Origin: Terriglobia bacterium
Lineage (GTDB): Bacteria > Acidobacteriota > UBA6911
Length of the DNA stretch: 64,000 nucleotides
Assembly: GCA_963739235.1 (NCBI GenBank)
Contig: CAVTZY010000033.1
Span: 232,226 to 296,225, forward strand
Direction: 5' to 3'
The position numbers and the translations under genes were made by a program. The notes below the pieces were generated by a model that had not been told where the DNA came from, ran no database searches, and saw only the letters and a list, made by a program, of their open reading frames with translations. Each line of letters opens with the position of its first letter. The first letter of the stretch is position 1. Positions 12,610 through 64,000 of the stretch are shown in pieces.

Positions 12610-12631
12610 AGCTGCCTATTTTGATCTTTCT

Positions 12632-27023: not shown

Positions 27024-28571
27024 ATGAAAGCCATTCGCATGCATTTTCTAATGTTGCCGCTCCTGCTCGTCTGTTGCATCGGCAGCAGTGTGGGGGAACA
27101 AAAGGCATCGAGTGTACGTCCTCCAGCCGTAGCCGGCCAGTTTTACCCATCCGATCCGGCCCGCTTGAAGCTGGCGGTGCAGCAATTCCTCGAGGATGCT
27201 CTCCCGGCCGCCATTGAGAAGCCGGTCGCTATTGTCGTTCCTCATGCCGGCTACCTCTACTCGGGGCAGATCGCCGCCGACGGTTATCGCCAGGTGAAGG
27301 GGCAGAATTACGACACCGTAGTGGTGCTCGGCACCAACCATGGCAGAAACCAGGCCAGCGCCAACCTGACCGGCATTTCCGTATACCCGAGCGGCTCCTA
27401 CAAAACTCCATTGGGCGAGGCCGCAATCGATACGACAATGGCAGGCGCGCTGCTGGCAGAAGATTCCGATTGTTCGGCGAACACGGCTGCACAGGCGAAT
27501 GAGCACTCCATCGAGGTTCAAGTTCCATTTATCCAGACCCTGTTCCCCACCGCCAAAATCGTGCCGCTCATGATCGGCATGCCGGATCCATCCATGTGCT
27601 CACGCCTCGGCAAGGCGATAGCCAAAGTTTCTAAAGACAAACGGGTGCTGGTGGTGGCAAGTTCCGATCTCTCGCATTTTCCCGGTTATGAGGACTCCTC
27701 CAACGTCGACAGACAGACCCTGGAAGCCATCGCCAGGCTCGACCCCGGTCAATTCTCGTCAAAAGTGCGCGCCCTGATGTCACGTGGTATTCCCGGCCTG
27801 GAAACGTGCGCCTGCGGCGAGGGACCGATCCTGGCTGCGATGGCGGCGGCAAAAGCCATGGGCGCCGGCCGGGGAATCGTCGTGAGCTGTGCCAATACTG
27901 GTGATGCAGTAGCCGAAGACAGATCTCGCGTCGTGGGTTATGGATCGGTTGTTTTTGCCGCCGGCGACGGGACGCCTGATCTCCGGGCTTTGAGCCGCAC
28001 CGCGGGGCCGCCGCCTTCAGGCCCGCTGCAAGCCGCGGACAAAAGAGCGCTGTTGAAACTGGCGCGGCAGAGCCTGCAACGTTTTCTCACTACTGAGACC
28101 ATCCCCCTCGCCCGGAATCTGGCGCCCAGACTGCAGTTTCCGCAAGGCGCTTTCGTCACGCTCAAGCAGCACGGTGAGCTGCGCGGCTGCATCGGCCGTC
28201 TCATGGGAGATTTTCCGCTCGGCCTGACGGCGAGCTGGATGGCCGTGCAAGCGGGCGAATATGATTCCCGCTTTCCTCCCGTAACCCTCAAGGAACTCGG
28301 CGGCCTGGAAATTGAGATTTCTGTCATGACCCCTATGAAACCGATCGCCAAGCCGTCGGAAATCGTGATCGGCCGCGACGGCGTCGTAATCCAGAAAAGC
28401 GGCCGATCTGCCGTTTTTCTGCCTCAGGTGGCGACGGAACAAGGTTGGGGGCTGTCGGAAATGCTGGACAATCTCTGTCTCAAAGCCGGCCTGCCGCGCG
28501 ATGCCTGGAAAAGCGGCGCACAGTTCCGGGTCTTCCAGGCCGAGGTCTTCAGTGAAACTCAGTTCAAATAG
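27024..28571 (+). CDS. Memo-like (AmmeMemoRadiSam protein B) fused to an AMMECR1 domain (protein A), with a signal peptide
   Basis: Signal 'MKAIRMHFLMLPLLLVCCIGSSVG'. Memo motif 'AGQFYP...VVPHAGYLYSG'. AMMECR1 motif 'GAFVTLKQHGELRGCIGRL'. GGAGGA RBS before the ATG at 27024. Confidence 0.8.
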   Translation: MKAIRMHFLMLPLLLVCCIGSSVGEQKASSVRPPAVAGQFYPSDPARLKLAVQQFLEDALPAAIEKPVAIVVPHAGYLYSGQIAADGYRQVKGQNYDTVVVLGTNHGRNQASANLTGISVYPSGSYKTPLGEAAIDTTMAGALLAEDSDCSANTAAQANEHSIEVQVPFIQTLFPTAKIVPLMIGMPDPSMCSRLGKAIAKVSKDKRVLVVASSDLSHFPGYEDSSNVDRQTLEAIARLDPGQFSSKVRALMSRGIPGLETCACGEGPILAAMAAAKAMGAGRGIVVSCANTGDAVAEDRSRVVGYGSVVFAAGDGTPDLRALSRTAGPPPSGPLQAADKRALLKLARQSLQRFLTTETIPLARNLAPRLQFPQGAFVTLKQHGELRGCIGRLMGDFPLGLTASWMAVQAGEYDSRFPPVTLKELGGLEIEISVMTPMKPIAKPSEIVIGRDGVVIQKSGRSAVFLPQVATEQGWGLSEMLDNLCLKAGLPRDAWKSGAQFRVFQAEVFSETQFK

Positions 28572-28577
28572 CCCATC

Positions 28578-30743
28578 ATGATGGATCTGCTGATCATCGG
28601 ACTCGTCTCAATACTCGGGCAGGCGGTATTGCTCCGGGAACTGAGCGTGGCCTTCTATGGCATTGAACTGATCTATGTCCTGTCCATGGGTATCTGGCTT
28701 GTCTGGGCCGCCCTCGGCGCGGTAATAGGCAGGCGAAACCTCAGCCCCTCCGGCACCTGGATTCGATTTTTCTTTCTCCTGTATTCACTTCTCCTCCCCG
28801 CAGACGTGGTGTTCATTCGCTCCATCCGAGCGATCTTTTCCCAAGTGCCCGGCGCCTACCTCCCGTTTTCACATCAGATCCTGGCAATGTCGGCAGCTCT
28901 GCTTCCGATCGGCCTGCTTTCGGGATTGATTTTCCAATGGGCGGCCAAGCTGTACCTGGTCAGGGGGCGCACGCTTGCCGGGGCCTATGCCCTCGAAAGC
29001 ACAGGCGGATTGGCTGGCGGACTTTGTGCGACCTGTTTTCTCAGATTTGGTCTTCAAAATCTGACCATCGCAATTCTCTGCGCGATCTTTGCGCTGAGTG
29101 CAGTGTTGGCCGGCCGGGAGAAAAACCGGGGGATCCGCATAGCCGCCGCAGCAGCAGGTGCTATGGCACTTATCCTGCTCTGGCGCGCCGGCCCCATCGA
29201 TCGCGCGATGACCGCATGGACACATCCAAACCTGCTGGCTACGCAGGACACCCCTTACTGCCGTATCACGGTGACGCATCAGGGAGGCCAGATCGCAGTT
29301 TACGAGAATGATGCCCTGTCGTTCGAAACTGAGGGCACCGAAGCGGAAGAGTTTGTCCACATGGCAGCCCTGATGCACCCACGGCCGGCCCGGGTTTTGA
29401 TCCTCGGCGGCGGCATCGAAGGCACTGTCCGGGAGATCCTGAAGCATGCTCCGGCGCAGGTGGACTATGTGGAACTGAACCCGGCCATGTTGACGATGGT
29501 CGCGCCAAATCTTCCCAGGGAACTGCAGGAACCGCTGCATGCACCTTCGGTTCGAGTCACGGCTGCTGATGCCCGGCGCTTCCTGCGCAGCGCCGGCCTC
29601 TTTGATCTAATACTAATCGGCATGCCGGAACCTGATTCCGGGCAGGCGAATCGGTTTTATACACTGGAGTTTTTCGAGCAGTGCGCCGCGCATCTCAGTT
29701 CGGATGGAATCCTGGCATTCCGTTTGAAAGCCGGGGAAAACTTCTGGACCTCTCAACAGGCAGGCCGTGCCGTGAGCATCTATAGGTCGCTGAGGGCGGC
29801 CCTGCCTCGAGTTCAGGTTTTGCCGGGGACAGCCAGCATCTTTGCGGCGTCAATGCAGCCTCTTCCCACAGACCCGGCTTTGCTATCCTCCCGCCTGGAA
29901 GCGCGCGGCATTGGCACCAGGCTCGTATCCGCGCCTTACATTCGCTACATCTACACCAACGACCGGTATTTCAAGATCGCGCATCTGCTCGACACCGTGT
30001 CGGCTCCGCTTAACACCGATGTCCGCCCCATTTGCTACCAGTACACCCTCATGATCTGGCTTTCCAAGTTTTACCCGAGCGTGGCAGTTCTCGACTTATC
30101 TTCACTTGTCGCCTGGGGTCATTCCCATCAGCCATTCTTGTGGTTGGTGGCGTTGGCACTACCTCTCATGTTCGTGATTTGTCGCCGGCGCCCGCCCCTG
30201 CGCCGCGCTCTGCTCGTCGGGATTGCGGCCTTCGTGGGCATGGTTCTTGAAACCTTGCTCGTGCTGTATTACCAGGTAAAGAGCGGCATTCTCTATCAGG
30301 ATATAGGAATTCTGCTTATGGGTTTCATGGCCGGGCTTGCTCTGGGCGCGCGGGTGACCGACAGACATGTCTTTGCCCGGATGCGCGGCATGCCGCGGTG
30401 GTATGGCTTGGTCTTGTGCGCAGGATTCACTCTTTTCAGCATGGTCACGAGTCTGAGCATACGGGCCGGCACGATAGACGGCCTTGCAGAAATTACGGGA
30501 TTGCTTTTGATCACGGGCTTCCTGGTCGCCTCCGTATTTGCATACGCGAGTTTGGAGAGCGACCAGGATCAGAGAAACATGGTGGCGCCGCTGTATTCCG
30601 CAGACCTCATCGGCGGCTGCATGGGTTCAGTGGCCAGCACTCTCCTGCTGATTCCGATTGCGGGTCTGGTGGCAACCGCAGCCTCCATGGCGCCGCTGGC
30701 ACTGCTGTCCATTCTACTCCTGAGGTGGAAAGGAAATGGGTAG
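28578..30743 (+). CDS. polytopic membrane protein fused to a spermidine-synthase-like SAM-fold domain
   Basis: 721 aa. N- and C-terminal TM bundles flank 'VLILGGGIEGTVREIL...VDYVELNP'. Only a 6-nt gap from the preceding gene. Confidence 0.7.
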   Translation: MMDLLIIGLVSILGQAVLLRELSVAFYGIELIYVLSMGIWLVWAALGAVIGRRNLSPSGTWIRFFFLLYSLLLPADVVFIRSIRAIFSQVPGAYLPFSHQILAMSAALLPIGLLSGLIFQWAAKLYLVRGRTLAGAYALESTGGLAGGLCATCFLRFGLQNLTIAILCAIFALSAVLAGREKNRGIRIAAAAAGAMALILLWRAGPIDRAMTAWTHPNLLATQDTPYCRITVTHQGGQIAVYENDALSFETEGTEAEEFVHMAALMHPRPARVLILGGGIEGTVREILKHAPAQVDYVELNPAMLTMVAPNLPRELQEPLHAPSVRVTAADARRFLRSAGLFDLILIGMPEPDSGQANRFYTLEFFEQCAAHLSSDGILAFRLKAGENFWTSQQAGRAVSIYRSLRAALPRVQVLPGTASIFAASMQPLPTDPALLSSRLEARGIGTRLVSAPYIRYIYTNDRYFKIAHLLDTVSAPLNTDVRPICYQYTLMIWLSKFYPSVAVLDLSSLVAWGHSHQPFLWLVALALPLMFVICRRRPPLRRALLVGIAAFVGMVLETLLVLYYQVKSGILYQDIGILLMGFMAGLALGARVTDRHVFARMRGMPRWYGLVLCAGFTLFSMVTSLSIRAGTIDGLAEITGLLLITGFLVASVFAYASLESDQDQRNMVAPLYSADLIGGCMGSVASTLLLIPIAGLVATAASMAPLALLSILLLRWKGNG

Positions 30744-30802
30744 GATTGACGATTGACGTTTGAAAGCCGCGTCAATCGTAAATCGTCAATGAGGGGGGAC
30801 GT

Positions 30803-31792
30803 ATGATTTCCGTTCACATGGAAAATGGACAGATATCCATCCGGAAAAGGCCGCGTCCGCGCAGGCCGCGAGGCTTTGCCCTGATCCGCTTGCTGTGTGG
30901 GGGCATATGCAATACGGACCTGGAACTGCAGCGAGGCTACTATGGTTTCCGTGGCACACCCGGTCATGAGTTTGTCGGCATCGTCGTGGCGGCGGACACA
31001 CCCAGGCTCTTGGGCCGGCGTGTGGTCGGCGAAATCAATCTTGCCTGCGGCAAGTGCTCCTGGTGTCGGCGGCGGCTCGGCCGTCATTGCCCTGGACGCA
31101 AGGTGCTGGGCATCGTGGGCCAGCCAGGCGTGTTCGCCGAGTATTTTGTACTGCCGGAATGCAATCTGCATGCTGTGCCGGATTCAATCCCCACGGAATC
31201 TGCCGTTTTTATGGAACCGCTGGCAGCCGCCTGCGAGGTCCTGGACCAGTTGCACATCCCGCGTGCAGCCCCGGTCGCGGTGCTCGGCGACGGCAAGCTC
31301 GGCCTCCTGATTGCCCAGGTGCTTCACCTCTACGGCACAGAGGTTCATCTTTACGGACATCACCGCGAGCGGATGCGCATCGCCGCGGTGGCAGGCATCC
31401 GAACCGCACAGGCACCCACACGGCCGCGTGCTGTGTACGATTGGCTGGTAGAGGTCACAGGTTCTGCTGAGGGCCTGAGTTTGGCCATCCAAATGGTGCG
31501 TCCACGCTCTACCATCGTCATGAAGTCGACGGTCCATGCGCAGGTGGCCGTCGACTTTGCTCATCTGATCGTGAACGAAATTACTCTGATCGGCTCGCGC
31601 TGCGGCCGCTTCCAACCCGCACTCCGTCTGCTGCGCGAGGGTAAGATACGCGTTTCTGAAATGATCTCGGCGAGAATGCCGCTCTCGGATGCTCCTCGCG
31701 CATTTGATCTCGCGGCGACGAAGGGCTCCCTCAAAGTGCTCTTATTCCCCGATGAAGCCGCGGATCAAGCCAATTTCCTGCTTCGAAAATAG
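30803..31792 (+). CDS. zinc-dependent alcohol dehydrogenase family (MDR) protein
   Basis: 'GHEFVG' catalytic Zn motif, 'CGKCSWCRRRLGRHC' structural Zn site, 'VLGDGKLG' nucleotide fold. Confidence 0.85.
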   Translation: MISVHMENGQISIRKRPRPRRPRGFALIRLLCGGICNTDLELQRGYYGFRGTPGHEFVGIVVAADTPRLLGRRVVGEINLACGKCSWCRRRLGRHCPGRKVLGIVGQPGVFAEYFVLPECNLHAVPDSIPTESAVFMEPLAAACEVLDQLHIPRAAPVAVLGDGKLGLLIAQVLHLYGTEVHLYGHHRERMRIAAVAGIRTAQAPTRPRAVYDWLVEVTGSAEGLSLAIQMVRPRSTIVMKSTVHAQVAVDFAHLIVNEITLIGSRCGRFQPALRLLREGKIRVSEMISARMPLSDAPRAFDLAATKGSLKVLLFPDEAADQANFLLRK

Positions 31793-31826
31793 AACCGATT
31801 GCGGCGCGGAACCACTTGTGTGTTTC

Positions 31827-37305: not shown

Positions 37306-37334
37306 TGTGGTTCGGCACCGCAATCGGTTCTATT

Positions 37335-37457
37335 TTCGAAGCAGAGGCCGCTGAAAAAAGCCAGAGACCGCGGAGGTTTTATGGAAGGACGACTGCAAAC
37401 CAGCCAACTCTCTGCGACCTCTGGTTATTCTCTGCGGCCTCTGCGTTGGGCTTTTAC
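37335..37457. repeat. inverted-repeat element ('gcagaggccgc...ccgcggag' / 'ctctgcgacc...gcggcctctgc')
   Basis: Arms are visible directly. The motif type is related to the core of the 5556-5795 element. Confidence 0.6.
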
Positions 37458-46043: not shown

Positions 46044-46115
46044 CACTTTTTGTTTTCAATTATTTATCCCATTGTGATACCATAGGTGATACCGAAAAAG
46101 GAGTTTCGGTCACCC

Positions 46116-47273
46116 ATGAATCGACACGTCAATCTCACCAAACGCATTCGAACTCCGAAGGGATTGCGCTTCTGTCCCATAGTCGTCTCCGCTAACGGCC
46201 GAGTCAAGCCGGATTACGTGGTTGTTGGTGACCACGAAGAACGGCATCCGGAGGGATCCTATTATCTGGAATGGTACGATGGCAGCAAGCGAACCCGCCT
46301 ATCGGTTGGCCAAGATCCAGCGACTGCGGCCGCCCGCCGGCATCAACAGGAGCAAATTCTCGCCAGCAGGGCGGCTGGCATTCCACTAGCCATCGAAGGC
46401 AAGATCGAAGGCGTCCTTCTGGGCGATGCCGTTGCAATCTATCTTGACGAAATCCGAAAAACCAAAAAACACAAGACCTGGGCCGCCTATAAGACGGCGC
46501 TCTCCTACTTCCTGGATTCCTGTTCGAAGGCCCGCGTGACGGATATCGAGCGCGCGGACCTGCTTCAGTTCAGTGCCTTCCTTCGCGACACCAAAAAGCT
46601 GGAGCCCCGGACCGTATACAACAAATTCGAAAGCGTAATTTCATTTCTGCGGACCAGCGGCGTACGCGGCCTCGCAGGCAAGAACGATTGGCCGCGCTAC
46701 GTCGAGGATGAGCCGGAGATTTACGAGCGCGCGGATCTGAAAAAGTTCTTCGCTGCCTGCACCGAACACGAGCGGCTGTGGTTTGAGTTTTTCCTGATGA
46801 CCGGCCTGCGGGAGCAGGAGGTCATGCACTGCACCTGGTCTGAAATCAATCTCGGCCGCGGCGTAGTGACGGTGCGCTACAAACCGGAGTTTGGCTTTTC
46901 GCCGAAAGCCTACAAGGGGCGCGAGGTGCCCATCCCGGACAAGCTCGTCCGATCGCTCAAGAAGCGGAAGGCAGCCGTAGAGACAAGCACGTGTCCATTG
47001 TTGTTTCCGACGTCGGGAGGCAGGCCCAAGCTGGATTTCCTCGACGCGTGCAAATCGATTGCGACCCGGGCCAAGCTGAATCCTGATGGCTTTTATTTGC
47101 ACAAATTCCGTGCCACTTTCGCTACTTGGGCCCTGTGGAGCGGCGTCGACCTGCGCACGGTACAGCAGTGGATGGGCCACAGCGACCTGGAGAGCACCCT
47201 GCGTTATCTCAAACCCAATCGCGGCGACGCAGTCCGGGACAAGGTAAACACCATGTTCGAGGATTGGGAATAG
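46116..47273 (+). CDS. int: tyrosine-type integrase (phage/ICE integrase family)
   Basis: 'HKFRATFATWALWSGVDLRTVQQWMGHSDLESTLRYL' catalytic H-x-x-R...Y region. Starts 73 nt downstream of the tRNA-Ser. Confidence 0.88.
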   Translation: MNRHVNLTKRIRTPKGLRFCPIVVSANGRVKPDYVVVGDHEERHPEGSYYLEWYDGSKRTRLSVGQDPATAAARRHQQEQILASRAAGIPLAIEGKIEGVLLGDAVAIYLDEIRKTKKHKTWAAYKTALSYFLDSCSKARVTDIERADLLQFSAFLRDTKKLEPRTVYNKFESVISFLRTSGVRGLAGKNDWPRYVEDEPEIYERADLKKFFAACTEHERLWFEFFLMTGLREQEVMHCTWSEINLGRGVVTVRYKPEFGFSPKAYKGREVPIPDKLVRSLKKRKAAVETSTCPLLFPTSGGRPKLDFLDACKSIATRAKLNPDGFYLHKFRATFATWALWSGVDLRTVQQWMGHSDLESTLRYLKPNRGDAVRDKVNTMFEDWE

Positions 47274-48398: not shown

Positions 48399-50314
48399 CA
48401 CTAAGCGCCTGCGCAAAAATAACTTCACATTCTGCGGAGCAACTATCCCAAAGGTCGTTTACGCATCTTGATCGTCTATGGGCATCAAATGGCCATTTAT
48501 CAATAAATTTATGAGATGGTTGGGAATCATGGGTGTGGTATAATTCGTCCTGGTAGACTCTTTTCAGGAGGAACTATACCACATGGTATTTGATCCGAAT
48601 GTCCTTCGATCCTTCCTGCATCAAGAGAGGATTGCCACGCTCCCGGAGCTGAAGCAAGCTTTGGGAAGCATGGCTACCATGACCGTGTTTCGAAAGCTCA
48701 AGGCGTTAGGCTACCGCACGAGCTATTCGCACCGCGGGAGATACTACACGCTGGTGAACATTCCCCGGTTCGACGAGCGAGGTCTCTGGACTTGCCGCGC
48801 CGTATGGTTTTCGCGCGACGGCAGCCTGCTCACCACCGCCCGGCGGTTTGTGAACGATTCCGATGCTGGGCTTACCGCCGGGGAATTGCAGGCGCTACTG
48901 AATGTCGAGGTCAAGGAATCGCTTCTGGTGCTGTACCGTCGAGGGCAAATTGCCCGCGAGGAAATCGGCGGCGTCCTTGTGCACTTTTCTACTGAGCCTG
49001 GGGTACGGCGCGAGCAATGGCTGCGCCGCCAGAGTCCGGCGGGTGCGCTGGAGGTGGGCGACTCGGCGGCGGGCGAAGGGCTGGCGCCGGAAATGAAGGC
49101 CGCGATCATTCTGTTTTTCAGCTTGCTGGATGAGAAACAGAGGCGGGTGTATGCGGGCTTGGAGGCCCAGAAGCTCGGATACGGCGGCGATATCAAGATT
49201 GCGGACTTTCTGGGGTTGGACGTGCACACAGTGTCGCGTGGGCGCCGGGAGCTCTTTGGAGACCGTGTCCAGCGGGAAAGGATTCGCCGTCAGGGCGGTG
49301 GGCGCCCGGCTGCGGAAAAAAAACGCCGGAAGTGCTCGCATGCATTTCGGACCTGCTCAAACACGAAACGGCTGGCGATCCGATGAAGGGTCTGAAGTGG
49401 ACCCGAAGGACAACCAGGAAAATCGCTCGAGAACTGCGTCGGCTGCAGATCCGTGTTAGTGCCAACACGGTGCGCCGGTTGTTGAAGCGGATGGGGTTCT
49501 CCTTGCGCGTGAACCACAAGAGACTGGAGTCAGGGAACAAGAATCCGCCGCCCCGCCGGGTACGAAACCAGCAGTTTTTATACATCGGCCGGAAAAGGGA
49601 GGAGTTCTCCTCCAACGGAAAGCCTGTCATCAGCGTGGACGCGAAAAAGAAGGAGATGGTCGGGGCCTTCAAGAATCCCGGGGTGTCGTGGCAACGCGAA
49701 CCGCAGATCGTCAACGACCACGACTTCCGCAGCGATGCCGAGGGGATGGCGATTCCCTATGGCATCTACGATACGCGGACCAATCATGGTTTCGTGGTGG
49801 TCGGGACCAGCACCGAAACGCCCGCCTTCGCAGTGGACGCAATCGTTTCCTGGTGGAAAAGTCGGGGCGGCAGTATCTATCCTGATGCAGATGAACTCCT
49901 GATCTTGGCAGACTGTGGCGGCGGCAACAGCGCCCGTGCGCGTGGATGGAAGTATCACCTGCAACACCGGTTCTGCAATCCTTACGGGCTGAAGGTGACC
50001 GTCTGTCATTATCCGCCTGGCGCATCAAAATGGAATCCGATCGAGCACCGCCTGTTTTCCCAGATTAGCAAGAACTGGGCAGGCAAGCCGCTGGAAAGCT
50101 ATGAGACTGTGATCAAGTATATTCACTCGACTACTACCTCGGGCGGATTGAAGGTCAACGCCTGGTTGTCACTGAAGCGTTATGAAAAGGGCGAAGAGAT
50201 CTCCAACGTAGAGATGAAGCGGCTCATGCTTGCCGGCCACAAGACGCTACCGGCATGGAATTACACGTTGACGCCGAGCAGAATGTGAAGTTATTTTTGC
50301 GCAGGCGCTAAGTG
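48399..50314 (+). mobile_element. ISAzo13-family insertion sequence (1,916 bp)
   Basis: 34-bp terminal inverted repeats with 1 mismatch. They are 48399-48432 'cactaagcgcctgcgcaaaaataacttcacattc' and 50281-50314 'gaatgtgaagttatttttgcgcaggcgctaagtg', and they enclose the transposase. Confidence 0.85.
48583..50288 (+). CDS. ISAzo13-family DDE transposase, in two overlapping ORFs joined by a -1 shift at the A8 run (49316-49323)
   Basis: ORF1 ends '...RRQGGGRPAAEKK'. The -1 frame continues 'TPEVLACISDLLKHETAGDPMKGLKWTRRTTRKIA...', with 'VISVDAKKKE', 'LILADCGGGN' and 'KWNPIEHRLFS' typical of this family. Confidence 0.8.
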
Positions 50315-51330: not shown

Positions 51331-52106
51331 TCATCCAGAAACTTTTTGTCGGTTTTCGGTCAGCCGGATGGACGCCTCCTTGAGACGGTAGCTCCTACCT
51401 TCGAACTTGAGCAGATGGCCGCGGTGAAGGAGTCGGTCCTGAATGGCCGACGAAGCGGCGTTGTCGCCGAGGAGTTTCCCCAATCCTCCAGGGGACGATT
51501 GGAAGTAATCAGGCTGCTTTTTCTCGAGGTGTATCGATTCAGAATAATCTCGAGTAAATCGTCGGCAGCCTGTTCCGGGACGTTCTTGCGCAGAAACAAA
51601 TCGTCGATGACCAACAGATCGCTTTCGGAGAAGAGTTTGGTCACCTTTTTTCTCCGCTTAAGTTGAGCGGATTCGAAGAGGTCTTCGAAAAAGGCATGGG
51701 CTTCGCGATACACGACTTTGTAGCCGGTCTGAATGGCGGCATGCGCCACTGTCTTTGCAATATGGCTTTTCCCGGTTCCGGGCGAGCCGATCAGCAGAGC
51801 ATCAGCGCCGTCCCGGATAAATTTGCCGCTGACCAGTTCGTAGATTTCCTTTTTGGGCAGCTTCGGATTGAAGCCCCAGTCAAATTCGGTCAAAGTGGGC
51901 CGGTCCGGGAGGCCGGAGGCTTTGAAGCGGGTTTCCACGAGGCGCGAGTTTCGCCAGTCCATTTCGTCCTGCACGAGGCAGGCAAACACCTCTACGAAAG
52001 AAGCACCCTGGTTGGCCTGAACGAGTCGGGTTTCCAGCGTGGCGCTCATGCCATGCAGGCGAACCGTTTTGAGATTTCTCTGTAATTCTGCTAACGGCAT
52101 TTCCAT
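51331..52106 (-). pseudogene. istB: IS21-family helper ATPase IstB, frameshifted near its C-terminus (about 51475-51481)
   Basis: Walker A 'GSPGTGKSHIA' and 'LLVIDDL'. After 'TSNRPLEDWG' the listed frame reads nonsense. The alternate frame gives the canonical 'KLLGDNAASSAIQDRLLHRGHLLKFEGRSYRLKEA', ending at 51331. Confidence 0.85.
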
Positions 52107-52144
52107 TAATTGGGCTCCTTATCTTCTTTTTCATCCTGTGGTTT

Positions 52145-54877
52145 TTAAAAACAGCCTTGCACGCGCAAGAGCTGAAGTTGTTCTACCGACATGTCGGCCG
52201 GGTCCTGGACCGAATCCGAGATCAGGTCCCCGGAGAGGCCCCGGTCCCAGTCAAACACGCTCACCTCGAAGTGGTTCTGCCGCAGCCGCTCGAACGCCTG
52301 ACAGGCGCCCTTTCGACCGGCCTCGTCCCGGTCCAGAAACAAAATGATTCGTGGAAACCCGATCCGGGACCGAATCCACGCCAACCGCTCGATCTGTTCC
52401 GCGGAGATGTGGGCTCCCATCAAGGCACCGACATTACAACAGCCCGCTTCCACGAGCTTGGCCACATCAAAAAAGCCCTCCACGAGAACCAGACCGAATG
52501 TCCTCGCCTGGCGGCCGGCTTCTGGATCCAGCAGGAGTTGATCCTGGTTGTAGATTTCCAGCCCTTTTCGGAACGGATAACTCCAGTATTTTCCATCCGA
52601 GTTTTCTTGTTCCGGCATCAGGGCCCGTCCGGTGTGGCTCAGGATGATCGACTGAAGACCCTGGCCATTCTCTTTCACGCCCCGGATTTGAAACACCACC
52701 CGGGAATGCAGGGGAGAGCCCGGTCCTCGGTTCGCTCTCGGGGGCAAAAAGCCGCAGCCCAGATAACGACAGGTGGCGGCAGATATGCCGCGACGGCTCA
52801 ATTCGGGATGATCGGAGTGAAGATAACGGCGCAGGTCGATCTCGATGTCGCGATTGGCAGGAGTCGTACACGTCGGGACGCTGACCGGACTTGGTTGCGG
52901 TTTTGGGTCAGGAGCAGGCGGTGTTTGCGGCATTGCCGTGCAGATTCCTTCCCCGACCATCCACTCGGCTACTTCGAACATGGTCATCTCACGGCCCTGC
53001 CGCTGCAGCACCTCCCGGCAGAACTGGATGATGCCGCCGCCCTTGCCGCTGCTGAAATCCTTGTAGACATTGGCCGACAGACTGACGTGCATCGAGGCCT
53101 GCTTTTCCTGTGTAAACGGAGATCTGAGCCAGATCTCATCATCTCGGCTGCGGCGCTGGTGGTCTACGCTGAGTTGAAACACCTCGATCACCTTCCGCCA
53201 GCTTGCCTGCTGCCAGACCTCGCGCAGTTGCTGCCGGTCAATGACCCGCGATATGGAAGCAATCGTCTTTTGGGGAATCGGCGCCGCCGGGAGTTCCGCC
53301 TGGGCGGCGTGTTGATTCCAAAAAGCGGCGTAGTCTTCCCCCGGGCGAATCAAGGCGTGCTTTTGCGTGAGACGGTCGGATTCTTCGGCTTTCCGTTCCC
53401 CGGCTTCGGCCGCCATGCTCTCCACGATCCGCCGCAAGGCTTTGAAACTTCTCAGCCCGTTGCGCTTTACCACTTCCGCCGCTTTCTCCACGTGGCAGGC
53501 CGCGTAATGTCGAACCAGATTGACCAGGCCGTACATGCGGCGTTGACCGCTGCGGCCTTCTTCCTTGAACCATGTCTCGCACAGATCGAAGGTGTGCGGA
53601 CCGATGCATTCGGCCTGTGCCAGCAAGCGGTCTGTTTCCCGGGATGGATTGAAGATCCGATCCGCGGGGTCCATCATCAGGGAACCAGGCCGCCTGCTCC
53701 TGGGATGGCGGCGGATAACCTCCATCCGGACCGGATCGAGTATCTTGACTTGATCCTCGTAGATCCGTACCACCACCTTGCTGCCGAGCGGTGCCGGACT
53801 GGCGGCATAGTAGGATTGGCCGATCTGAGTCGTCCCGTCATCGTAGACCGTCCGGGTTTCCTGCTGAAAATAGCGGAACGGCATCAGCGGCAACGGCTGC
53901 AGATAGGGTTTCTCTTCCTGGAACATCTCCTTGACCTGCCGCTTGGCCCGGCCATGGATTCGCGGCGATGCCCACCGATCCTCCCAATGCATCAACCATT
54001 CGTTCTGGGCCTCGATGCTTTCGAATTTCCGTCCCTTCAAGGCCGTGTCCTGCGTGTATTTCACCGCATTCTCCACGGTCCCTTTTCGGTCCGAATCGCC
54101 CACTCTCGCCGGATCTGCCACTACCTCGTAATGATTCAACATCGCGGCATACAGCGGATTGAGATCCGGTTCATAGATGTCCGGCTTGATCACGCCTTCC
54201 TTGAGGTTGTCCAATGTCACGTATTGCGAACAGCCCGCAAAATAGCGGAACGCTTCCTCGTGCAGCCGGCACCAGATTTCCTTGCTCGAATTCCAAACCA
54301 CCTTCCGAAAGGCCCGCCCCGAGTACTTCAAGGTCATGATGAACAGGCGCGGCCGCCGGAATTTTCCGCTGCTGTGAAGAGTTGGAGCCCCCTGCCCGTA
54401 GTCCACCTGGGCTTCTTCTCCCATCAGGAATTCCAGCCGGTCATATTGCTCGGGGTCCTTCCGTTTGAGGAGCCGCACAAACCGCTTCACGCTGTTGTAG
54501 CGGTGATTGAAACCGAACAGTTCTACCAGATCCTGGTAGATGGCCATGGCATTGCGGCCCCCTCTGACCTGCTCCTCGATCCACTCCCGGTGCGCTTCAC
54601 AGGCCGAGCGGACATGCTTGGGCATTTTGGGTTCAGGAGCCGGTGGCCGGGGTGGGGGATTTTGATTCAATGGTATCTCAGAGCCGGTGGCCACCTCCTG
54701 TGGGGTGGGGGATTGTGAATCCCCACTTTCTTGTACCTCGTCCGAATCGTACGATTGGCCATACCGGCGGATGGTTTTTCGATCGATCCCGGTCTTTCGC
54801 TGGATCTCGCGTTGACTTATCTCCTTGTGCAGCAATGTCTTGATCGTGGTTTGCAAAGACAGCTTCAAAACGTTCAT
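52145..54877 (-). CDS. istA: IS21-family transposase IstA fused to a C-terminal DnaG-like primase/Toprim module
   Basis: N-terminal HTH 'ISQREIQRKTGIDRKTIRRY' and DDE core up to '...LTQKHALIRPGEDY' (aa about 1-545 of the 924-aa ORF). A Cys-less CHC2-finger-like 'LRSPFTQEKQASMHVSLSANVYKDFSSGKGGGIIQF' follows. Primase motifs are 'VVFQIRG..SHTGRAL', 'KYWSYP' and 'GLEIYNQD'. Toprim is 'LVLVEGFFDV' plus 'LFLDRDEAGRKG'. Confidence 0.8.
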   Translation of the reverse strand: MNVLKLSLQTTIKTLLHKEISQREIQRKTGIDRKTIRRYGQSYDSDEVQESGDSQSPTPQEVATGSEIPLNQNPPPRPPAPEPKMPKHVRSACEAHREWIEEQVRGGRNAMAIYQDLVELFGFNHRYNSVKRFVRLLKRKDPEQYDRLEFLMGEEAQVDYGQGAPTLHSSGKFRRPRLFIMTLKYSGRAFRKVVWNSSKEIWCRLHEEAFRYFAGCSQYVTLDNLKEGVIKPDIYEPDLNPLYAAMLNHYEVVADPARVGDSDRKGTVENAVKYTQDTALKGRKFESIEAQNEWLMHWEDRWASPRIHGRAKRQVKEMFQEEKPYLQPLPLMPFRYFQQETRTVYDDGTTQIGQSYYAASPAPLGSKVVVRIYEDQVKILDPVRMEVIRRHPRSRRPGSLMMDPADRIFNPSRETDRLLAQAECIGPHTFDLCETWFKEEGRSGQRRMYGLVNLVRHYAACHVEKAAEVVKRNGLRSFKALRRIVESMAAEAGERKAEESDRLTQKHALIRPGEDYAAFWNQHAAQAELPAAPIPQKTIASISRVIDRQQLREVWQQASWRKVIEVFQLSVDHQRRSRDDEIWLRSPFTQEKQASMHVSLSANVYKDFSSGKGGGIIQFCREVLQRQGREMTMFEVAEWMVGEGICTAMPQTPPAPDPKPQPSPVSVPTCTTPANRDIEIDLRRYLHSDHPELSRRGISAATCRYLGCGFLPPRANRGPGSPLHSRVVFQIRGVKENGQGLQSIILSHTGRALMPEQENSDGKYWSYPFRKGLEIYNQDQLLLDPEAGRQARTFGLVLVEGFFDVAKLVEAGCCNVGALMGAHISAEQIERLAWIRSRIGFPRIILFLDRDEAGRKGACQAFERLRQNHFEVSVFDWDRGLSGDLISDSVQDPADMSVEQLQLLRVQGCF

Positions 54878-55069
54878 CCTCTCTCTCCCATTTGTGAACG
54901 GACCAATGGGAGCATGCACGTTCTGTCGCCGTCTGCAGCGATGTTTATCGCGAAATCTGTGCAGCTAAGTGGGGGATTTTCAAGTGGCCACAAGTGGGGG
55001 ATTTTGGGTGGCCATCAGGGTTAGGGGAACATTTTGCAGCTACTCATCTTGATCGGAGGCGAGGGCTCT

Positions 55070-56197: not shown

Positions 56198-56496
56198 GAT
56201 AGTACGCCATAACATATTCTAGCTATTGATAATCAGGCATTGTGCGCAATTCACGAAATTCACGTATTTGGCGAAATTCGCGCAGTTGGCGCAGTACGCG
56301 CTAGACAAATAAAGAATGCATGTTAGAAAAATCTCATCATGCTTGGCCGAGTACGAGAAGACGCATTGGCTTCTAACGCATTCTCAGCCAGAGCCGTAGA
56401 TTGCTGATCTGAGTTCTTCATGAAATCGCTGGCTGCTGTCGGCATATATCGCGTTCATTGACTTGTACCTCCTTGGAACGTTACCGGAGAAAACGT

Positions 56497-57042
56497 ATGA
56501 ACCTCAAAAGCATTTATCTCAAATCCAAGGGCACGCTTTGGCCGCTGGTTGCCCTTCTTTTGCTGTTTACCATTGCGTTGGCGCTGGCTCAGACGCCGGA
56601 CAAAAAGGCGACACCGATGATCACCATCGATGGTTCGCAGACTCCGGACCGGATCCCGGACTGGATCCTGTGGAGCGAAGTATTCAAGACCGTGTCATTG
56701 CTATCGGACAAATTCGCGACGAAGGGCGATGACATTTGGGTGCAGAAGCTCCAACTCTCCAGGGAGCAGGCTAACCAACTCATCCAGCATGCCGGGACAC
56801 ATCGCGCCATGAATTCCGCAAAAAATGTGGAAGCGAGAAATCTCAAAGCCTCAACGAAAGAGAGCAAGGAATCGCTGCGCATCAAGCTGAAACAAGCCCA
56901 AATGAACAAGGAAGTCCAGATTCTCGAACTTCGCGATGCGCTTCGTGCGCGGATAGGTGAGGACGCATTCCAAAGGCTCCAATCTTACGCGAAGCTGAAT
57001 ATTGCGCCCACGATCAAGGTCGGCGCCATGGTCAGAAAATGA
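56497..57042 (+). CDS. secreted hypothetical protein upstream of the RHS gene
   Basis: Signal 'MNLKSIYLKSKGTLWPLVALLLLFTIALALAQ'. The remainder is helical and charged. No family recognised. Confidence 0.55.
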   Translation: MNLKSIYLKSKGTLWPLVALLLLFTIALALAQTPDKKATPMITIDGSQTPDRIPDWILWSEVFKTVSLLSDKFATKGDDIWVQKLQLSREQANQLIQHAGTHRAMNSAKNVEARNLKASTKESKESLRIKLKQAQMNKEVQILELRDALRARIGEDAFQRLQSYAKLNIAPTIKVGAMVRK

Positions 57043-57125
57043 GCGGGACCAGCCACGAGCATCACTGAACTGGAAACCAGCGGAAGGAGCATTAGTCCTA
57101 GCGTGAAATCCGGAGGAAATTGCTT

Positions 57126-60100
57126 ATGAAGCCGAAGATCTCGATTGGGGCGAATTCAGCAAGAATGATTTGGGCCGTTGGCCTAGGTTTTCTCTGCCTT
57201 TTGTCATTCATGCAAAGGGCATCCTATCCGAACGAAATCGTGGTTGAAGGAAAATACCATTTTCGGTCCGCGATTTGGGAGCAGTACGGAGCCGTCGTCG
57301 CCACAAGCAGCACTGACATTGACTACGATGCGCAGTACCAAAGCGCGAATATTGATCTGCTACTCGACCGGCCCGATGGTCCCGATGATGAGCAGCATGT
57401 TTGTAACGGCAGCTGCGAGGGCGTGAACATTGTAATCGTCGATCCTCTTATGTTTGGCACCTGGAATCTCCATGCGGATCATTGGATTGGCGATGAGTGC
57501 GGCGGGGATATGTGGATTTATGGAACTACTTCCGCGACCTTCACCAGAGCACAAACATCCATCAATTACTTCTATGCCAGCCCAAGCCATTATCTATACC
57601 CCGGATCGACCACGCTGTACTGGTCGACGACCAACGGATCAAACGCCTGGATCAATGGGACGGCCGTAGCTCTTTCCGGCAGTATGGTGGTCAGCCCTGG
57701 GATGACGACAACATATACGCTCTCCGTGTACGGCACCCTGAATACTGCTACCGCCACTGCTGCGGTCGGGGTCGACAAGCCTCTGTTAATGAATGGATAC
57801 CGCTATTCCGTGCGCCATGAAAAGGGCACGCCGCCGTTCTTCCCCTATACGCAGGTCAATCAGGAATCTGTAAACGTCGCCAACGGCAACCTCTTCTTTA
57901 CGGTGCCGCTCTTGAGCCGCCCGGGACGCAACGGCCTGGGTGTTGATCTGAAGCTTGCCTACAACTCCAAGCTCTGGGATTTCTATACTTGGAACGCCGC
58001 GATCTACGCCACCTTAGTTGAGGATAGTTCCTGGGTGGGCACCGGTTGGACACTGCTGGTCGGGAGAGTCATTGACGACTCGTCCAACGGGCGCTACTAC
58101 GTCACCCTTTCCGATGGATCCAACCACGAAATGACCTATTACGGAGGAGCATGGCGATCGATGGATTCAACCTACATGATTTACGATCCCGTCGTCCACA
58201 AACTGACTCTAAAGGGCGGCATAAACCTTCGTTTCGATTACCAGGATTCGGTGCGCACTAACATGCGGTTCGCCACGCGAGTCCAGGACACCAACGGCAA
58301 TTATCTCGAAATCGCCTATGGCAGTGGCGGAGGGCGCATCAGCACAATCCAGGATACGCTCGGGAACACCTACACCTTTTTGCTGAATTCCCAGGGAAGG
58401 CTGGCGTACATATCCTATTTTAACACCAACGACACAACCCAGCCGACGAGCACGATCGCTCTCGAGTATGATAGCCAGGCGATCTCTTTCGGCCCGGAGG
58501 CAGTGACTGCCTCCATGCCGGCGCAGGAATTCCTCGCGCATGTGACGTACATCAGCGGCGTCCGTTATAATCTCGTGTACGGAGGCAGCGGCGAACTCAG
58601 CGAAATAACCTACCCCACATTCGGGACCAGCCGCTATTTTTATAGCACCTACAACGTGTTGGAGCGCTTTCTCAACCAGACGGTCCCGGATCACTATGTC
58701 AGCAGTCACGACACGGGGGAGGGCACTGGAATATGGAGTTGGAACAACAGCCCGAATGGCCTGGCGGCGGCAGTTGGCGCGTCCATAACGGACCCGGGCA
58801 ATCAAAACAACTGGTACTACATCGCTGTCTTTATGGGCAAAGCAGGCGCAAGCTGGGCCGATGGATTTGTAACGAATCGAGTGACCGAAGACCTCTACGC
58901 TTACTACCGCCTGAAACTCGAATCCCAGCAAGACTGGACACAGGACGATACCCAGATCTCGACCATCAAGAATCCCAGGGTGGCCTGGACTCAGCACGTA
59001 GCCACAGGTGGGGCTTTACGGCCGGATGCGCAAACGATCAGCCGGAAGGAGTTCACCTACGCCCCTGCCGCTGACTACAGCGGGAATGTTAAGGAGATCA
59101 GAGAGTACGCTTGGAACGGCAGTCTGCGGCGCAAATCGACATTTAACTACCTCCACGAATCCAATGGCGCCTATGTTCCCTTGAACATCCTCGACAGGGC
59201 GACCGACGCGCTTATCTATGATGGCTCCAACCACCTGATCTCCAAAAGCCTGACCGCGTACGATTCAGTCTCGCCGCTTTATGCTGCTGCGGGAGCCATT
59301 CGCCATGATTCGTCTTTCGATACGAATTATGTGGCCAGAGGACTGCCTACGAGCATTACCCGATGGCACAATATCGCTCAGAACCAGTCTGTTGTGTCTT
59401 CAGTCAGATATGACGAATGCGGAAATGCGCGAGAGGCGACGGATCCCCGGTCTAACGTGACCTTCACGGAGTTCTGGCTTTCGTCGGCCGATAACGCTTA
59501 CGCGTTTCTGCTCCGGGTAACCAACGCCAAGGGGCACGTTGCCAGCGCATCCTTCAGTTACAAGAGCGGCGCGGTGCTCAGCCAAACGGATACAAACGGA
59601 AAAGGCACATACACGACGTATGACAGCCTCGACCGCCCAACGGCAATCAACAAGACGGACGGGCCAAGCAAGGCCATTACATACTACGAGGATCCCGAAT
59701 ACCAGACACCCCCTTATGCAATGATCTGGGATTACCTGACAGCCAATACCTTTTCCACGCATTTCGCCGTGCTCGACAACATGGGGCGCCTGCAGCAACA
59801 GATTCTGAGTGATACCTCGGGTGGCGACATTCAACGGGAACTGACTTATAACCCGCGCGGCGACCTTTCGCAGGTATCCGCTCCGCATCGGGCTGGCGCC
59901 ATCGCGTTTCAAACCAGCTATACTTACCTGCAGCCGTCCAGTCAAGCCGTTACCTATGCTGATGGATCGACGGATTGTATCAGTCGAGCACCGGCACTGA
60001 CCCAGGTAATGAGACTCCAAAAACGGAACACGCAACTTTTGGTACCAGGAAGACGGCAAGATCAATACCGTGCAACTGGAGGATCCGGATACTGGGGTAG

Positions 60101-63042
60101 TTAATGTGGGGACAAGCTATATCTACGATGCCATGGGCAGATTGGCCACGATCACCCAAGGGGTTCAGGTTCGGTCCTTTGCCTATGACGATCTGGGCCG
60201 GCTCTTGACGGAGACTCATCCGGAAACCGGCACGACCAGTTACGGCTATGACGCCAACGGAAACATGCTCAGCAGGACGGACGCGCGCGGAACCGTGACG
60301 ACGTTCGCCTACGATGAGCTCAACCGCGTGACGCAGAAGAGCTATAGCGACGGAACCCCTTCGGTGAGCTACTACTATGATTCTCAGCCGTCCGGAAGCC
60401 CGATTGCAGCGATCAATCCGGTGGGCCGGCTGACCAAGGTGACAAGAACCGTATCGGGAGTGACGGCGAGCACCTATTACAGCTACTGCAGCTGCTCCGC
60501 GATCACCCAGGAGGCGACGGTAATCAATGACGGCACGGCGAAAACCTACATAACGAGCTACAGCTATAACCTGGCCGGGCAGTTGACGTCGATAACCTAC
60601 CCAAATGGGAAGGTTGTGAGCTACACGCTCGACGATGCGGGACGGCAGATCAATGCATCGTCGACCTACAACGGCCAACCCTTTGATTATATCTACTCGG
60701 CGTACTATGGGGGGCCGGCGGGCCAGATTACCCGGCTGCAGTACCCGATCAGGTATCCTTACCCTAACGGGCAGCGAGTGGAGGCGAACTACACATATGC
60801 GCCGCAGTCAGGGCAGCTGATACATATGGAGTCCTACCAGCTGAGCCTGAACTACGGTTATGTATCCGGGCGAATTTACGACATTACGGATCTTCTCAAT
60901 CAGAACGAAAGTCAGCACTTCGAGTACGACCGCTGGTGGCGGCTAACGGGCTATTGGAAGTCTCCGTCCCGAGGCTACAGCGGCGCCAAGATGCATTTCA
61001 GCTACGACCTCTACAACAACCTCACCGGCATGGACGCCTATGGCGTGCCCTGGACATTCAACGTCAACGTCGCCACCAACCGCGTCTCCAGCAGAACTAT
61101 TTGGAGTTCAAACGATTCCTTTACCTATGATTCTGCCGGTAACATGACGAGCATGGGCACCTTTGACGCCGAAAATCGCCTAATTCAGACTGCGCAAGGT
61201 GCCGGTTACCTGTACGACGGCAACGGACGGCGCTTCCGCACGAACGATGGAAACGTGGTAAACTATGTCTATTCCTACACGGGCCAGCTGCTGATGGAGG
61301 ACAGGGTTTCCGAATCGTTGTCGAGTAATTACATCTACTTCAATGGGCAGATGGTGGCGATTCATCAGCAGGACGAGACCATTCGCTTCTTGATCAAGGA
61401 TCATCTCGGGTCCACGCGCAAGGTGATTAGCGTCCCACTGTTCCCATATGAAACTTGGCAGTACAACTGGTACAACTGGTCCCTGACCAAGAGCTACGAT
61501 TATGAACCTTTCGGGGGATCGTTGTCCTCGAGCGGGCCGACCCGACAACGGTTTCAGGGGAAGGATCGGAGCGGCGGCTTGGATTATTACGGCGCTAGAT
61601 TCTACGACAGCAGAAACATCCAGGCTCCTCCTTACGGCACCATGCGCTGGATCTCGGCCGATTCCTTGACGTCTCGCATCTACGATCCCCCATCCCTGAA
61701 CAAATACACCTACGTCAGAAACGACCCCGTCAACCTCATCGACCCGGATGGAAGAAACGTAGCAGCTCCAAATGGCTACGCTCCGCCGGGTTTGTTGTTT
61801 GAGTTTGACTGGGAAATATTTAGTCCCACTGCCGTCATATCGGGCGGGGAAGGTGAGATTACCGGCTTGAATATTGGTCTATCCTCGGAACCAGGCGACG
61901 ATATTGGTAGCCCCGATATTCTGGGGACCGTGTTCAACGTTCATGAGTTCAAGCGGGACGACGGTTCGACGGGCAAGGTCATGAGCGTCATACTGGCCGA
62001 CGAAACCGGGACCGTCAGGACATCGTTCTGGGGCAACGCCGTCGAACTCGCGAAGAAGTTTTCAATCGGCGACATCGTTTCCATCCACAACGCATACACC
62101 CGCGCGGGATTGGCGAGCAAGCCGGAGGTCCAAATCGGGCGCTCCACTAGCATCGACATAAATCCGGCTGGCATCTCCGTCGGCGAGCTGAAGCCGAGCA
62201 GGATAAAGATCGGCGAGCTCGAGGTCGGCATGGACGCGCTCGAGGTGGTCGGCAGGGTGATAGAGGTATCGAGGGCGAGGGAGTTCACGCGCACCGACGG
62301 CAGCAAGGGAAAGGTCGCGACCCTCGGGATAGGCGACGAGACGGGGACGACGCGGCTCTCGCTCTGGCAGGATGCCGTCGATAAAGCTGAAAAAATAAAA
62401 GTCGGGGACATCATCAAAGCGACGAATTGCTACGGCGCCCTCGGATTGTACGGCCAGCCCGAGCTGCACCTTGGGAGGCAGGGGAGCATCGATGTGAACC
62501 CGTCGATGGAGGGAGAACTGCCGCGGGCCGACGTGCTGTCGATGGCGATCGCCGCCCCGGAGCGCATAGAAATAGGGGCGCTCGAGAAGGAGGGCCTCAA
62601 GGTCCAGGTGCGCGGCACGATAGTCAGGGTCTTTCAGAGGAGGCCGCTCTTCGATGTCTGCCCGCTGTGCGGCCGCAGCCTCGGCAGCGTCGACCACAGC
62701 CTCCTGTGCGAGGAGTGCGGCAAAGTGGTCACGCCCGAGCATCGGGTCGTCGTGAGCTTCCTGGTCGAGGATGGCACCGGAAACATCAGGGCCGTGCTCT
62801 TCGGAAAGGTCGCGGAGAAATTGCTCGGCATGGACGCGCAGCAGGTGTTCGGACTCTTCAAACAGACCCCCGACGTCATCGAGCTCTACAACAAGCTCAA
62901 CATATTGGGCAAGGAGGTCACGATCACCGGGACCACGCGCTACGACAAGTACTTCAACCAGCTCGAGATCAGGGCGAGCGATGTCGAGATCCCGGAGCCG
63001 AAACAGGAGGCGCGCGCGCTGTTGGAAAAAATAAAAGCATGA
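57126..63042 (+). pseudogene. RHS/YD-repeat protein (about 1,970 aa) split into two ORFs by a +1 shift at or near the A5 run 60019-60023
   Basis: GGAGGA RBS before the ATG at 57126 and an N-terminal signal or TM segment. Many YD repeats ('YTYDSLDRP', 'YIYDAMGRL', 'FAYDDLGRL', 'YGYDANGNM'). RHS core end 'YYGARFYDS...NKYTYVRNDPVNLIDPDG' (DPDG at 61741-61752). Frame 1 reads 'SKNGTRNFWYQEDGKINTVQLEDPDTG' from 60016. Confidence 0.85.
61915..63039 (+). other. archaeal-type replication protein A (RPA)-like module in frame with the RHS core: three OB folds, the third with a Zn ribbon
   Basis: OB signatures 'FKRDDGSTGKVMSVILADETGTVRTSFWGNAV' and 'FTRTDGSKGKVATLGIGDETGTTRLSLWQDAV'. Zn ribbon 'CPLCGRSLGSVDHSLLCEECG' (62659-62718). 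Third OB 'FLVEDGTGNIRAVLFGKVAE'. Confidence 0.75.
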
Positions 63043-63067
63043 ATGACGACATTAGGACGTGGAACCG

Positions 63068-64000
63068 ATGGAAAGAAAAACGCAATCGATCGAAAGTCTG
63101 CCGGGCGTCGGAGAGGCGACCGCGGATAAGCTTCGTGAAGCCGGTTACGGAACTGTCGAGTCGCTCGCCGTCGTGACGGTAGAGGAACTCTGCGAAGTCG
63201 CGGAGATCGGAGAAAGCCAAGCCAAAAAAATCATCGCGGCTGCCAAAAAAGCTGCTGACATAGGCGAGTTTGTAACTGCTGATCAAGTTCTCGAGCGCCG
63301 GAAGACAGTCGGCTGGATAACCACGGGCAGCAAGCAGCTGGACACGTTGCTCGGCGGCGGGGTTGAGACCCGGGCGGTGACGGAAGCTTTTGGAGAGTTC
63401 GGTGCCGGCAAATCTCAGCTCGGCCATCAGCTTTGCGTGAACTGTGCAGCTGCCTCCGGAGCGGGGCGGCTTGAACGGCAGGGCGATATTCATAGACACG
63501 GAAAACACGTTCAGACCAGAGCGCATCATAAGTATGGCGGGTGGAGTCGATTTGGATTCGAACGAGGTGCTGAAAAATATTTTGGTCGCGCGGTCCTACA
63601 ACACGGACCAGCAACTCTTGATAGCTGAAAAGGCCGAGGACATCATCGAGAAGGAAAACGTGCGACTGCTGGTGATCGACAGTTTGACCTCCCATTTCAG
63701 GGCCGAGTTCACCGGGAGGGAGACGCTCGCCGAACGGCAGCAGAAACTCGCCAGGCACCTCTTGGTCCTGCACCGCATAGCGGATCTAAAGGACGTCGCC
63801 ATCTACGTCACGAACCAGGTGCAGGCGCGCCCAGACATGTTTTTCGGTGACCCGACTAGGCCAATAGGCGGCCACGTCTTGGCACACTCCGCAACGACCC
63901 GCATCTACATGCGGAAATCCAAGGGCGGGCGGCGAATAGCGCGCATAGTCGATAGCCCGAGCCTGCCCGAGGGAGAATCCATTTTCAACATAACAGAGAG
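63068..64000 (+). pseudogene. radA: archaeal/eukaryotic-type RadA (Rad51-like) recombinase, frameshifted at about 63443 and running off the window
   Basis: N-terminal HhH '[27 protein letters not shown]' and Walker A '[17 protein letters not shown]'. One extra nt at about 63443. The next frame reads '[28 protein letters not shown]...[15 protein letters not shown]...YVTNQV...[17 protein letters not shown]', open to position 64000. Confidence 0.85.

Follow-up and report, generated by a model that had tools for sequence, protein, structure and literature searches.

Bacterial rhs and archaeal RPA sequences meeting within one reading frame on a Terriglobia contig: a probable inter-genome misassembly

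The 64,000-nucleotide stretch of DNA analysed here (the window; positions 232,226 to 296,225 of contig CAVTZY010000033.1, assembly GCA_963739235.1, assigned to a Terriglobia bacterium) carries near its right-hand end a 990 amino acid open reading frame (ORF; 60070-63042) in which a bacterial Rhs sequence runs directly into the C-terminal part of an archaeal replication factor A (RPA). RHS repeats are found in the first 560 residues of the predicted product and archaeal-type OB folds and a Rep_fac-A_C domain in the last 370, and immediately downstream lies archaeal radA sequence. Comparison with independent assemblies places the change from bacterial to archaeal DNA at 61930|61932, because homology defines both sides, and the join at this point is probably an inter-genome misassembly. 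The two flanks continue differently elsewhere: in an independent contig from the European Nucleotide Archive (ENA; L050) the bacterial flank leads into an SLT domain, whilst in Hadarchaeal contigs the archaeal flank is preceded by residues 1-317 of RPA.

Two boundaries, not one, can be assigned in this region by homology. The first, at 61755/61756, separates the rhs core from its variable tip and the second, at 61930/61932, separates bacterial from archaeal DNA. A core-to-variable-tip boundary is normal in rhs genes. At the second boundary, a single T (61931, no strand given) is assignable to neither side. Bacterial homology stops at 61930, at the point where an orphan tip cassette on L050 runs on into its SLT domain, and all the close archaeal alignments covering the junction (16 contigs from several projects, at 92-96.4% nucleotide identity) begin at 61932-61933. 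The sole other close archaeal alignment (to L058) begins at 62686, because the L058 contig itself starts there. The open frame is unbroken from the Rhs core, via the tip linker, through 369 RPA residues to the native RPA stop. On the archaeal side the cut falls at RPA residue 318, inside the third OB fold (OB3) and after its first strand, and not at a domain border. The junction shows no shared sequence, an adapter and N check gave neither Ns nor adapter remnants, there is no microhomology beyond ~1 nucleotide and no flanking mobile-element ends were found there.

Several candidate explanations for features of the junction were tried and rejected. An adapter or N-gap was dismissed as none was detected. 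Breakage of the assembly graph by internal RPA repeats was likewise set aside, these being just ~70%-similar OB repeats with no exact repeat near the breakpoint. Finally, the weak similarity between DIGSPDILGTV in the window and the RPA strand DMQTLDLIARV might have suggested that archaeal homology reaches further upstream; however, the bacterial orphan tip on L050 has DIGAPDIPGT at this position and DNA identity to the archaeal sequence is at chance level.

Homology assigns everything through 61930 to a bacterium, specifically to a Terriglobia-like member of the Acidobacteriota. The prolyl-tRNA synthetase ProS encoded in the window belongs to the bacterial type II enzymes and shares 89% identity with the protein of a named Acidobacteriia/Terriglobia metagenome-assembled genome (MAG), and blastn and tblastx found no other archaeal-like DNA in positions 1-61900. 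The rhs gene itself lies on the forward strand and occupies two reading frames. Its N-terminal part (57126..60013) yields a 992 amino acid product (P0164) that runs on out of frame to 60104 and clusters with an intact 1745 amino acid Rhs protein (P0165) encoded on L050; relative to P0165, the window is shifted by a +1 insertion at 60014 and thus lacks an uninterrupted rhs reading frame. The C-terminal core (60015..61755) comprises YD/RHS repeats and an RHS repeat-associated core domain. Four stretches match the Pfam RHS_repeat model (7e-24), the NCBIfam YD_repeat_2x model is also matched, and TIGR03696 (Rhs_assc_core) scores 48.2 bits against a cut-off of 32.5 over ORF residues 478-561, with the motif PVNLIDPDGR closing the core at 61755.

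Beyond the core, positions 61756..61930 (forward strand) form a single open frame of 58 codons that has homology to L050, with 2 and 5 stops in the two alternative frames. Rhs homologues split right after DPDG[RK], each continuing with an aromatic segment, a Gly-rich linker and then a toxin domain, and the window follows this plan as far as it goes, with LLFEFDWEIF as the aromatic segment and, next to it, a Gly/Ser/Pro/acidic linker. The orphan tip cassette on L050 (15873-16089) matches window positions 61711-61784 (85%) and 61888-61930 (88%) before continuing into an SLT lytic-transglycosylase toxin domain (PF01464). This match shows the 'linker' to be the native start, 58 codons long, of a C-terminal Rhs tip of the SLT type and not a neutral spacer. 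No Rhs toxin domain with a cognate immunity gene is found after the core in the window: the 58-residue SLT-type linker is followed by archaeal RPA and radA.

The relationship between the window and L050 is itself uneven. Overall, window 56482-61754 is 93.6% identical to L050, but this figure combines a block (57,482-60,480) that is 100% identical apart from one inserted base with a stretch (~60,730-61,725) at 70-81% identity, rising to as much as 97% in the last 30 nucleotides (61,725-61,754). The identical 3-kb block (L050 ~10357-13355) has flanks that are just 70-96% identical, and the upstream neighbourhoods of the two loci differ; rhs loci or strains may have undergone recent gene conversion here, or else two assembly paths have a repeat in common. 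In addition, the tip of the main rhs gene in the window (61711-61930) is homologous to a cassette that on L050 sits downstream of the main gene, which has an HExxH metallopeptidase-like tip of its own. Such an exchange of main-gene and orphan positions is the pattern that would be expected for tip switching by recombination at the conserved end of the core. The orphan SLT cassette of L050 shifts frame within a G5 run at ~16085-16100 (GACCCGGGGGTGG), which could be either a homopolymer-type indel or the mark of a pseudogene, and the contig ends 90 nucleotides past the SLT ORF.

To the right of the junction, the sequence from 61932 to the end of the window is 92.6-96.4% identical at the nucleotide level to 13 full-length Hadarchaeal contigs (JGI, GTDB and Logan), with three shorter Hadarchaeal contigs that also reach the junction showing 91.8-94.8% identity. 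Positions 61932..63042 (forward strand, in frame with rhs) encode the 3' 54% of a Hadarchaeal RPA, residues 318-686 of 686, comprising part of OB3, OB4 and the Zn-ribbon/C-terminal OB domain. The fragment is 92% identical in amino acid sequence to P0001 (a 686 amino acid 'replication factor A1') and 93% identical to P0009, and its named relatives are all Hadesarchaea/Hadarchaeota. Domain searches identify an OB-fold (PF01336, 2e-20), a Rep_fac-A_C domain (PF08646, 8e-11) and a CxxC...CxxC motif. Full-length RPA (~686 residues) is not present: the NCBIfam replication factor A models give partial matches below their cut-offs, the best scoring 195.6 bits against a cut-off of 1147. Upstream of the breakpoint, where the Hadarchaeal contigs encode RPA residues 1-317, identity to the window is at chance level.

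The gene order RPA-radA-hydrolase-phosphoesterase-PRC-CDC48 is conserved in the Hadarchaeal relatives and in the window, too, RPA is followed by a Hadarchaeal radA gene (63068..64000, forward strand) that runs off the end of the window. The radA ORF is not intact, owing to a private one-nucleotide insertion, a G at 63439. When this base is removed the product is recognised as RadA, with helix-hairpin-helix and Rad51/RecA core regions, by TIGR02236 (478.4 bits, cut-off 361) and NF003301 (485.8 bits, cut-off 259). Across 2,069 archaeal nucleotides compared with 12 relatives there are five private substitutions in addition to this insertion, and all five are synonymous (P ~0.001 if unconstrained); it follows that the archaeal DNA can have existed as junk for essentially no time. 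There is no sign of decay here, and the stretch has the look of normal sequence from a recombining Hadarchaeal population.

Minor variation in the archaeal sequences was also noted. Around the RPA stop and radA start (63040-63070), a 4-5-nucleotide indel relative to the L001/L034 lineage removes an upstream overlapping radA ATG. The same form is common to the L051-L057 lineage, in which RadA is called as a 315 amino acid protein starting MERK, and is thus a natural variant and not damage. In one relative, L048 (JGI Ga0619418_09803592), an in-frame TAG at 245-250 within RPA (GSAG*VMSV, where relatives have AAG, Lys) leads to the gene being called in two pieces and may be either a sequencing error or a nonsense variant.

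Codon usage and base composition change in step with homology. In the archaeal-like part (61933-63998, read in the correct frames) AGG accounts for 16 of 46 Arg codons (35%) and ATA for 22 of 50 Ile codons (44%), compared with 50/519 (10%) and 31/484 (6%), respectively, in 14 bacterial core genes in the window (Fisher tests, P = 1e-5 for AGG and 3e-11 for ATA). The rhs gene has AGG at 7 of its 77 Arg codons (9%) and ATA at 8 of its 71 Ile codons (11%), and a matching bias to that of the archaeal-like part is seen in unrelated genes on a Hadarchaeal contig (AGG 25%, ATA 38%). G+C content is 0.566 in 61500-61755, 0.504 in 61790-61930 and 0.611 in 61932-63042, with third-position values (GC3) for the same segments of 0.73, 0.49 and 0.84. 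A codon model puts the change point at ~61714, which is less precise than the homology-based boundary. These counts and tests bear out an initial sequence-only reading of the window, which had reported a rise in AGG and ATA downstream of ~61.9 kb and, correctly, that the linker at 61.79-61.93 kb is AT-richer than both of its flanks (0.50 G+C, against 0.57 to the left and 0.61 to the right). The end coordinate given there for the compositional break, 61930, turns out to be exactly the final bacterial base by homology. That reading had also posed 'cross-domain transfer or assembly chimera' as the choice, and the evidence confirms that one of these two holds: the right flank is Hadarchaeal (96.4% nucleotide identity, RPA-radA synteny) and the left flank Terriglobia-like bacterial (ProS at 89%, the rhs gene).

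The two private insertions deserve attention. On the bacterial side, an A at 60014 (forward strand; ATGAGACTCC in place of ATGAG-CTCC) splits rhs into its two frames and is the sole difference from L050 in the 3-kb block, P0165 reading straight through at this point. On the archaeal side, the G at 63439 is absent from all 12 close relatives aligned and is the sole indel relative to L051-L057, the closest lineage. Both insertions thus lie within 2 kb of the junction, one on each side, in sequence that is otherwise identical or conserved. Over 46 kb of core genes, ORF and GC3 inspection with spot Pfam checks revealed no broken ORFs, and the core region (window 28410-31804) is matched at 100% identity by a 3.4-kb contig from the Logan assembly of run ERR10755944. 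Placed as they are, the two private insertions flanking the junction suggest a consensus drawn from few reads, that is, thin read support. The idea that a hybrid allele underlies the radA frameshift was rejected, the alternative allele being present in no relative.

A single 302,806-bp contig (NCBI, ENA) carries the annotated products of the fused ORF (P0161), of the 5' part of rhs (P0164) and of the 3' part of radA (P0247). P0247 is the C-terminal radA product, from the ATG at 63534 to the native stop, and since it is recorded as far as that stop the contig must continue beyond position 64000. The join is seen on this contig alone: neither it nor this linker allele was found elsewhere among 5.8 billion protein clusters or the GTDB and JGI contigs. 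Nor were other Rhs-OB fusions present among the matches listed, the lengths of which are all 280-726 amino acids. No Logan proteins were found for the rhs, RPA or radA regions, but this is uninformative, as Logan also lacks the undisputed part of rhs. The run and assembly accessions returned no hits in the literature.

How might such a join have come about? The strain-variable tips of Rhs proteins are branch points of a population's assembly graph. We envisage that the source is a metagenome-assembled contig of a Terriglobia-like acidobacterium in which the rhs gene ends in a strain-variable C-terminal tip, and that at base 61931 the assembly path would have departed from the bacterial genome, entering the chromosome of a co-sampled Hadarchaeon midway through RPA and continuing on into radA. 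The most likely cause would be a chimeric DNA molecule or read, or else a thinly supported graph edge, at the place where the population branches into different Rhs tips. The join would then have arisen in library preparation or assembly, and the outcome would be an annotated 'Rhs-RPA' ORF that is made by no cell. Inter-genome translocations are the commonest class of misassembly in benchmark metagenomes (PMC9661791), and long-read metagenome assemblers also yield chimeric contigs, clipping events and frameshift errors (PMC13087279).

A number of observations weigh against misassembly. The two sides share neither a repeat nor a k-mer where they meet; a classical de Bruijn-graph collapse is therefore unlikely, and one has to suppose a chimeric molecule or read. 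The junction is not a contig end but lies within a contig of 302.8 kb, which runs at least through the radA stop. The join is both in frame and co-oriented, as would happen by chance about once in six; the sequence-only reading had cautioned that an in-frame join is weak evidence of authenticity and, with orientation counted at these odds, that judgement is upheld. The bacterial break falls in a flexible linker ahead of the toxin domain, where tips are naturally exchanged, and the 1-nucleotide insertions in rhs and radA might just as well be genuine mutations that have inactivated a locus in decay. In the Hadarchaeal relatives the CDC48 gene lies 2-5 kb beyond radA, but the 90% cluster in which it would be expected holds no CDC48 protein of the source contig. 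This hints, weakly, at a short archaeal stretch; the test is a weak one, as the CDC48 of L035 is also absent from that cluster.

Several of these observations would sit well with a genuine and very recent insertion of Hadarchaeal DNA, without function, into a bacterial chromosome, which we consider unlikely. Environmental archaeal DNA would have been captured by illegitimate recombination within the variable rhs tip, replacing the SLT toxin domain and probably the immunity gene too, and would now be non-functional cargo starting to decay. A seamless in-frame junction in the tip linker is what might be seen in a gene class known for tip replacement; the correspondence between the main-gene tip in the window and the orphan tip of L050 indicates that the locus recombines; and the locus lies within a mobile island that includes an integrase and ISAzo13-type and IS21-type transposases. 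The private frameshifts at 60014 and 63439 are as expected of pseudogenes, and a contig that runs past the window and the missing source CDC48 are both compatible with a short insert. Set against this, 96.4% nucleotide identity to free-living Hadarchaeota and an entirely synonymous set of private substitutions leave essentially no time under relaxed constraint. With synonymous changes, archaeal codons and a unique join, the stretch shows none of the features—relaxed constraint, amelioration or presence in related genomes—by which horizontal transfer would be recognised. Informational genes such as RPA and radA, here truncated, offer a bacterium no plausible advantage, the junction has neither microhomology beyond ~1 nucleotide nor mobile-element ends beside it and is present in no related genome or metagenome searched, and archaeon-to-bacterium transfer at such identity is a priori far rarer than assembly chimeras. 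Were the join real, in our view a doubtful proposition, a Terriglobia line would have captured ~2 kb or more of Hadarchaeal chromosome in an exchangeable rhs tip and been sequenced soon after, with no decay beyond one frameshift.

A more radical proposal would be that the fused ORF encodes a functional polymorphic toxin, in which the Rhs shell encapsulates and delivers an archaeal-derived single-stranded DNA-binding (OB-fold/Zn-ribbon) payload, with the downstream gene providing immunity. The continuous frame that leads from the Rhs core through the tip linker and 369 RPA residues to a native stop might be taken to point this way, as might the high diversity of Rhs tips. We regard it as highly improbable, given that rhs is frameshifted upstream at 60014 in the present assembly, that the RPA fragment starts inside OB3 without the first strand of that fold and that the 'immunity' slot is occupied by a frameshifted radA. 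Furthermore, the encoded protein is still 92-93% identical to working archaeal RPAs, with no adaptive change, and no further Rhs-OB fusion appears among the matches listed (280-726 amino acids).

The consequences differ according to which account is correct. If the join is a chimera, as we think probable, a public MAG contig (302,806 bp; NCBI, ENA) includes 2 kb or more that belongs to another domain of life, and an annotated 990 amino acid 'Rhs-RPA' protein that no cell makes has already been clustered with true archaeal RPAs; entries of this kind mislead screens for horizontal gene transfer, catalogues of toxin domains and estimates of contamination. If the join is true, few transfers from an archaeon to a bacterium, if any, would ever have been seen so soon after the event; transfer between domains would have been caught in the act, and Rhs tips would be entry points for unrelated, non-homologous foreign DNA. 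Taken to its extreme, this view would make the in-frame RPA fragment a novel payload of Rhs.

Over its last 18 kb the window has the appearance of a mobile or variable island, in parts of which G+C content is lower (0.45-0.55). Upstream of rhs lie a tyrosine integrase (46086-47273), an ISAzo13-type DDE transposase (49332-50288) and, in the same variable island as rhs, an IS21-family element on the reverse strand (51360..54919) that consists of an istA-like ORF, extended by a primase-like C-terminus, and an istB that is frameshifted. The istA-like ORF (52145-54919, reverse strand) encodes 924 amino acids, with an IS21-family transposase at residues 27-412 (NCBIfam transpos_IS21, 4.8e-72) and a DnaG-like Zn-ribbon/Toprim primase module at residues 576-895 (a partial dnaG match; Pfam Toprim and Zn_ribbon_DnaG). 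Typical IstA proteins are about half as long, and the ORF may represent either an unusual transposase-primase fusion or another join. The DnaC-like istB (51360-52106, reverse strand) matches P0167 at 96% identity as far as residue 210, after which the frame shifts owing to a missing A in an A-run within 51466-51485 (A3 for A4; GGAAAC in place of the expected GGAAAAC), with the correct C-terminus found in another frame. The truncated 248 amino acid product is recorded on two contigs, and this frameshift (~51.47 kb), the third in the window, may be real given that it recurs. Elsewhere in the window are a 27-nucleotide exact inverted repeat (31778-31804 and 37318-37344), with Logan contig L049 ending exactly at the first copy, and a radical SAM enzyme of the AmmeMemoRadiSam system (25572-26828, forward strand; TIGR04337, 369 bits).

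How does the locus compare with known systems? On the bacterial side it resembles the Rhs/YD-repeat polymorphic toxins in its YD/RHS repeats, in a core ending PxxxxDPxG[RL] and in a lower-GC variable tip that follows directly, and it resembles Rhs toxins with orphan tip cassettes in that L050 has a homologous cassette downstream of its near-identical rhs gene. It differs from them in that its tip is a 58-residue linker alone, with archaeal RPA and radA in place of toxin and immunity genes, and in its +1 frameshift at 60014. On the archaeal side, the counterpart is the RPA-radA operon of the Hadarchaeota, whose RPA has four OB folds and a Zn ribbon in ~686 residues; protein identity is 92-93%, nucleotide identity 95-96% and codon bias is shared, and the arrangement of the RPA stop and radA start is identical to that of the L051-L057 lineage. 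From this operon the window differs in having RPA residues 318-686 alone, a private 1-nucleotide insertion in radA and a bacterial upstream neighbour. As for the join itself, whilst its breakpoint differs from that of a typical misassembly in being without a shared repeat and in lying within a 302.8-kb contig instead of at a demonstrable end, it has much in common with the inter-genome translocations found in MAGs: a taxonomic switch at one base, flanks that continue differently elsewhere, a strain-variable locus, locally clustered private indels and a join confined to a single contig.

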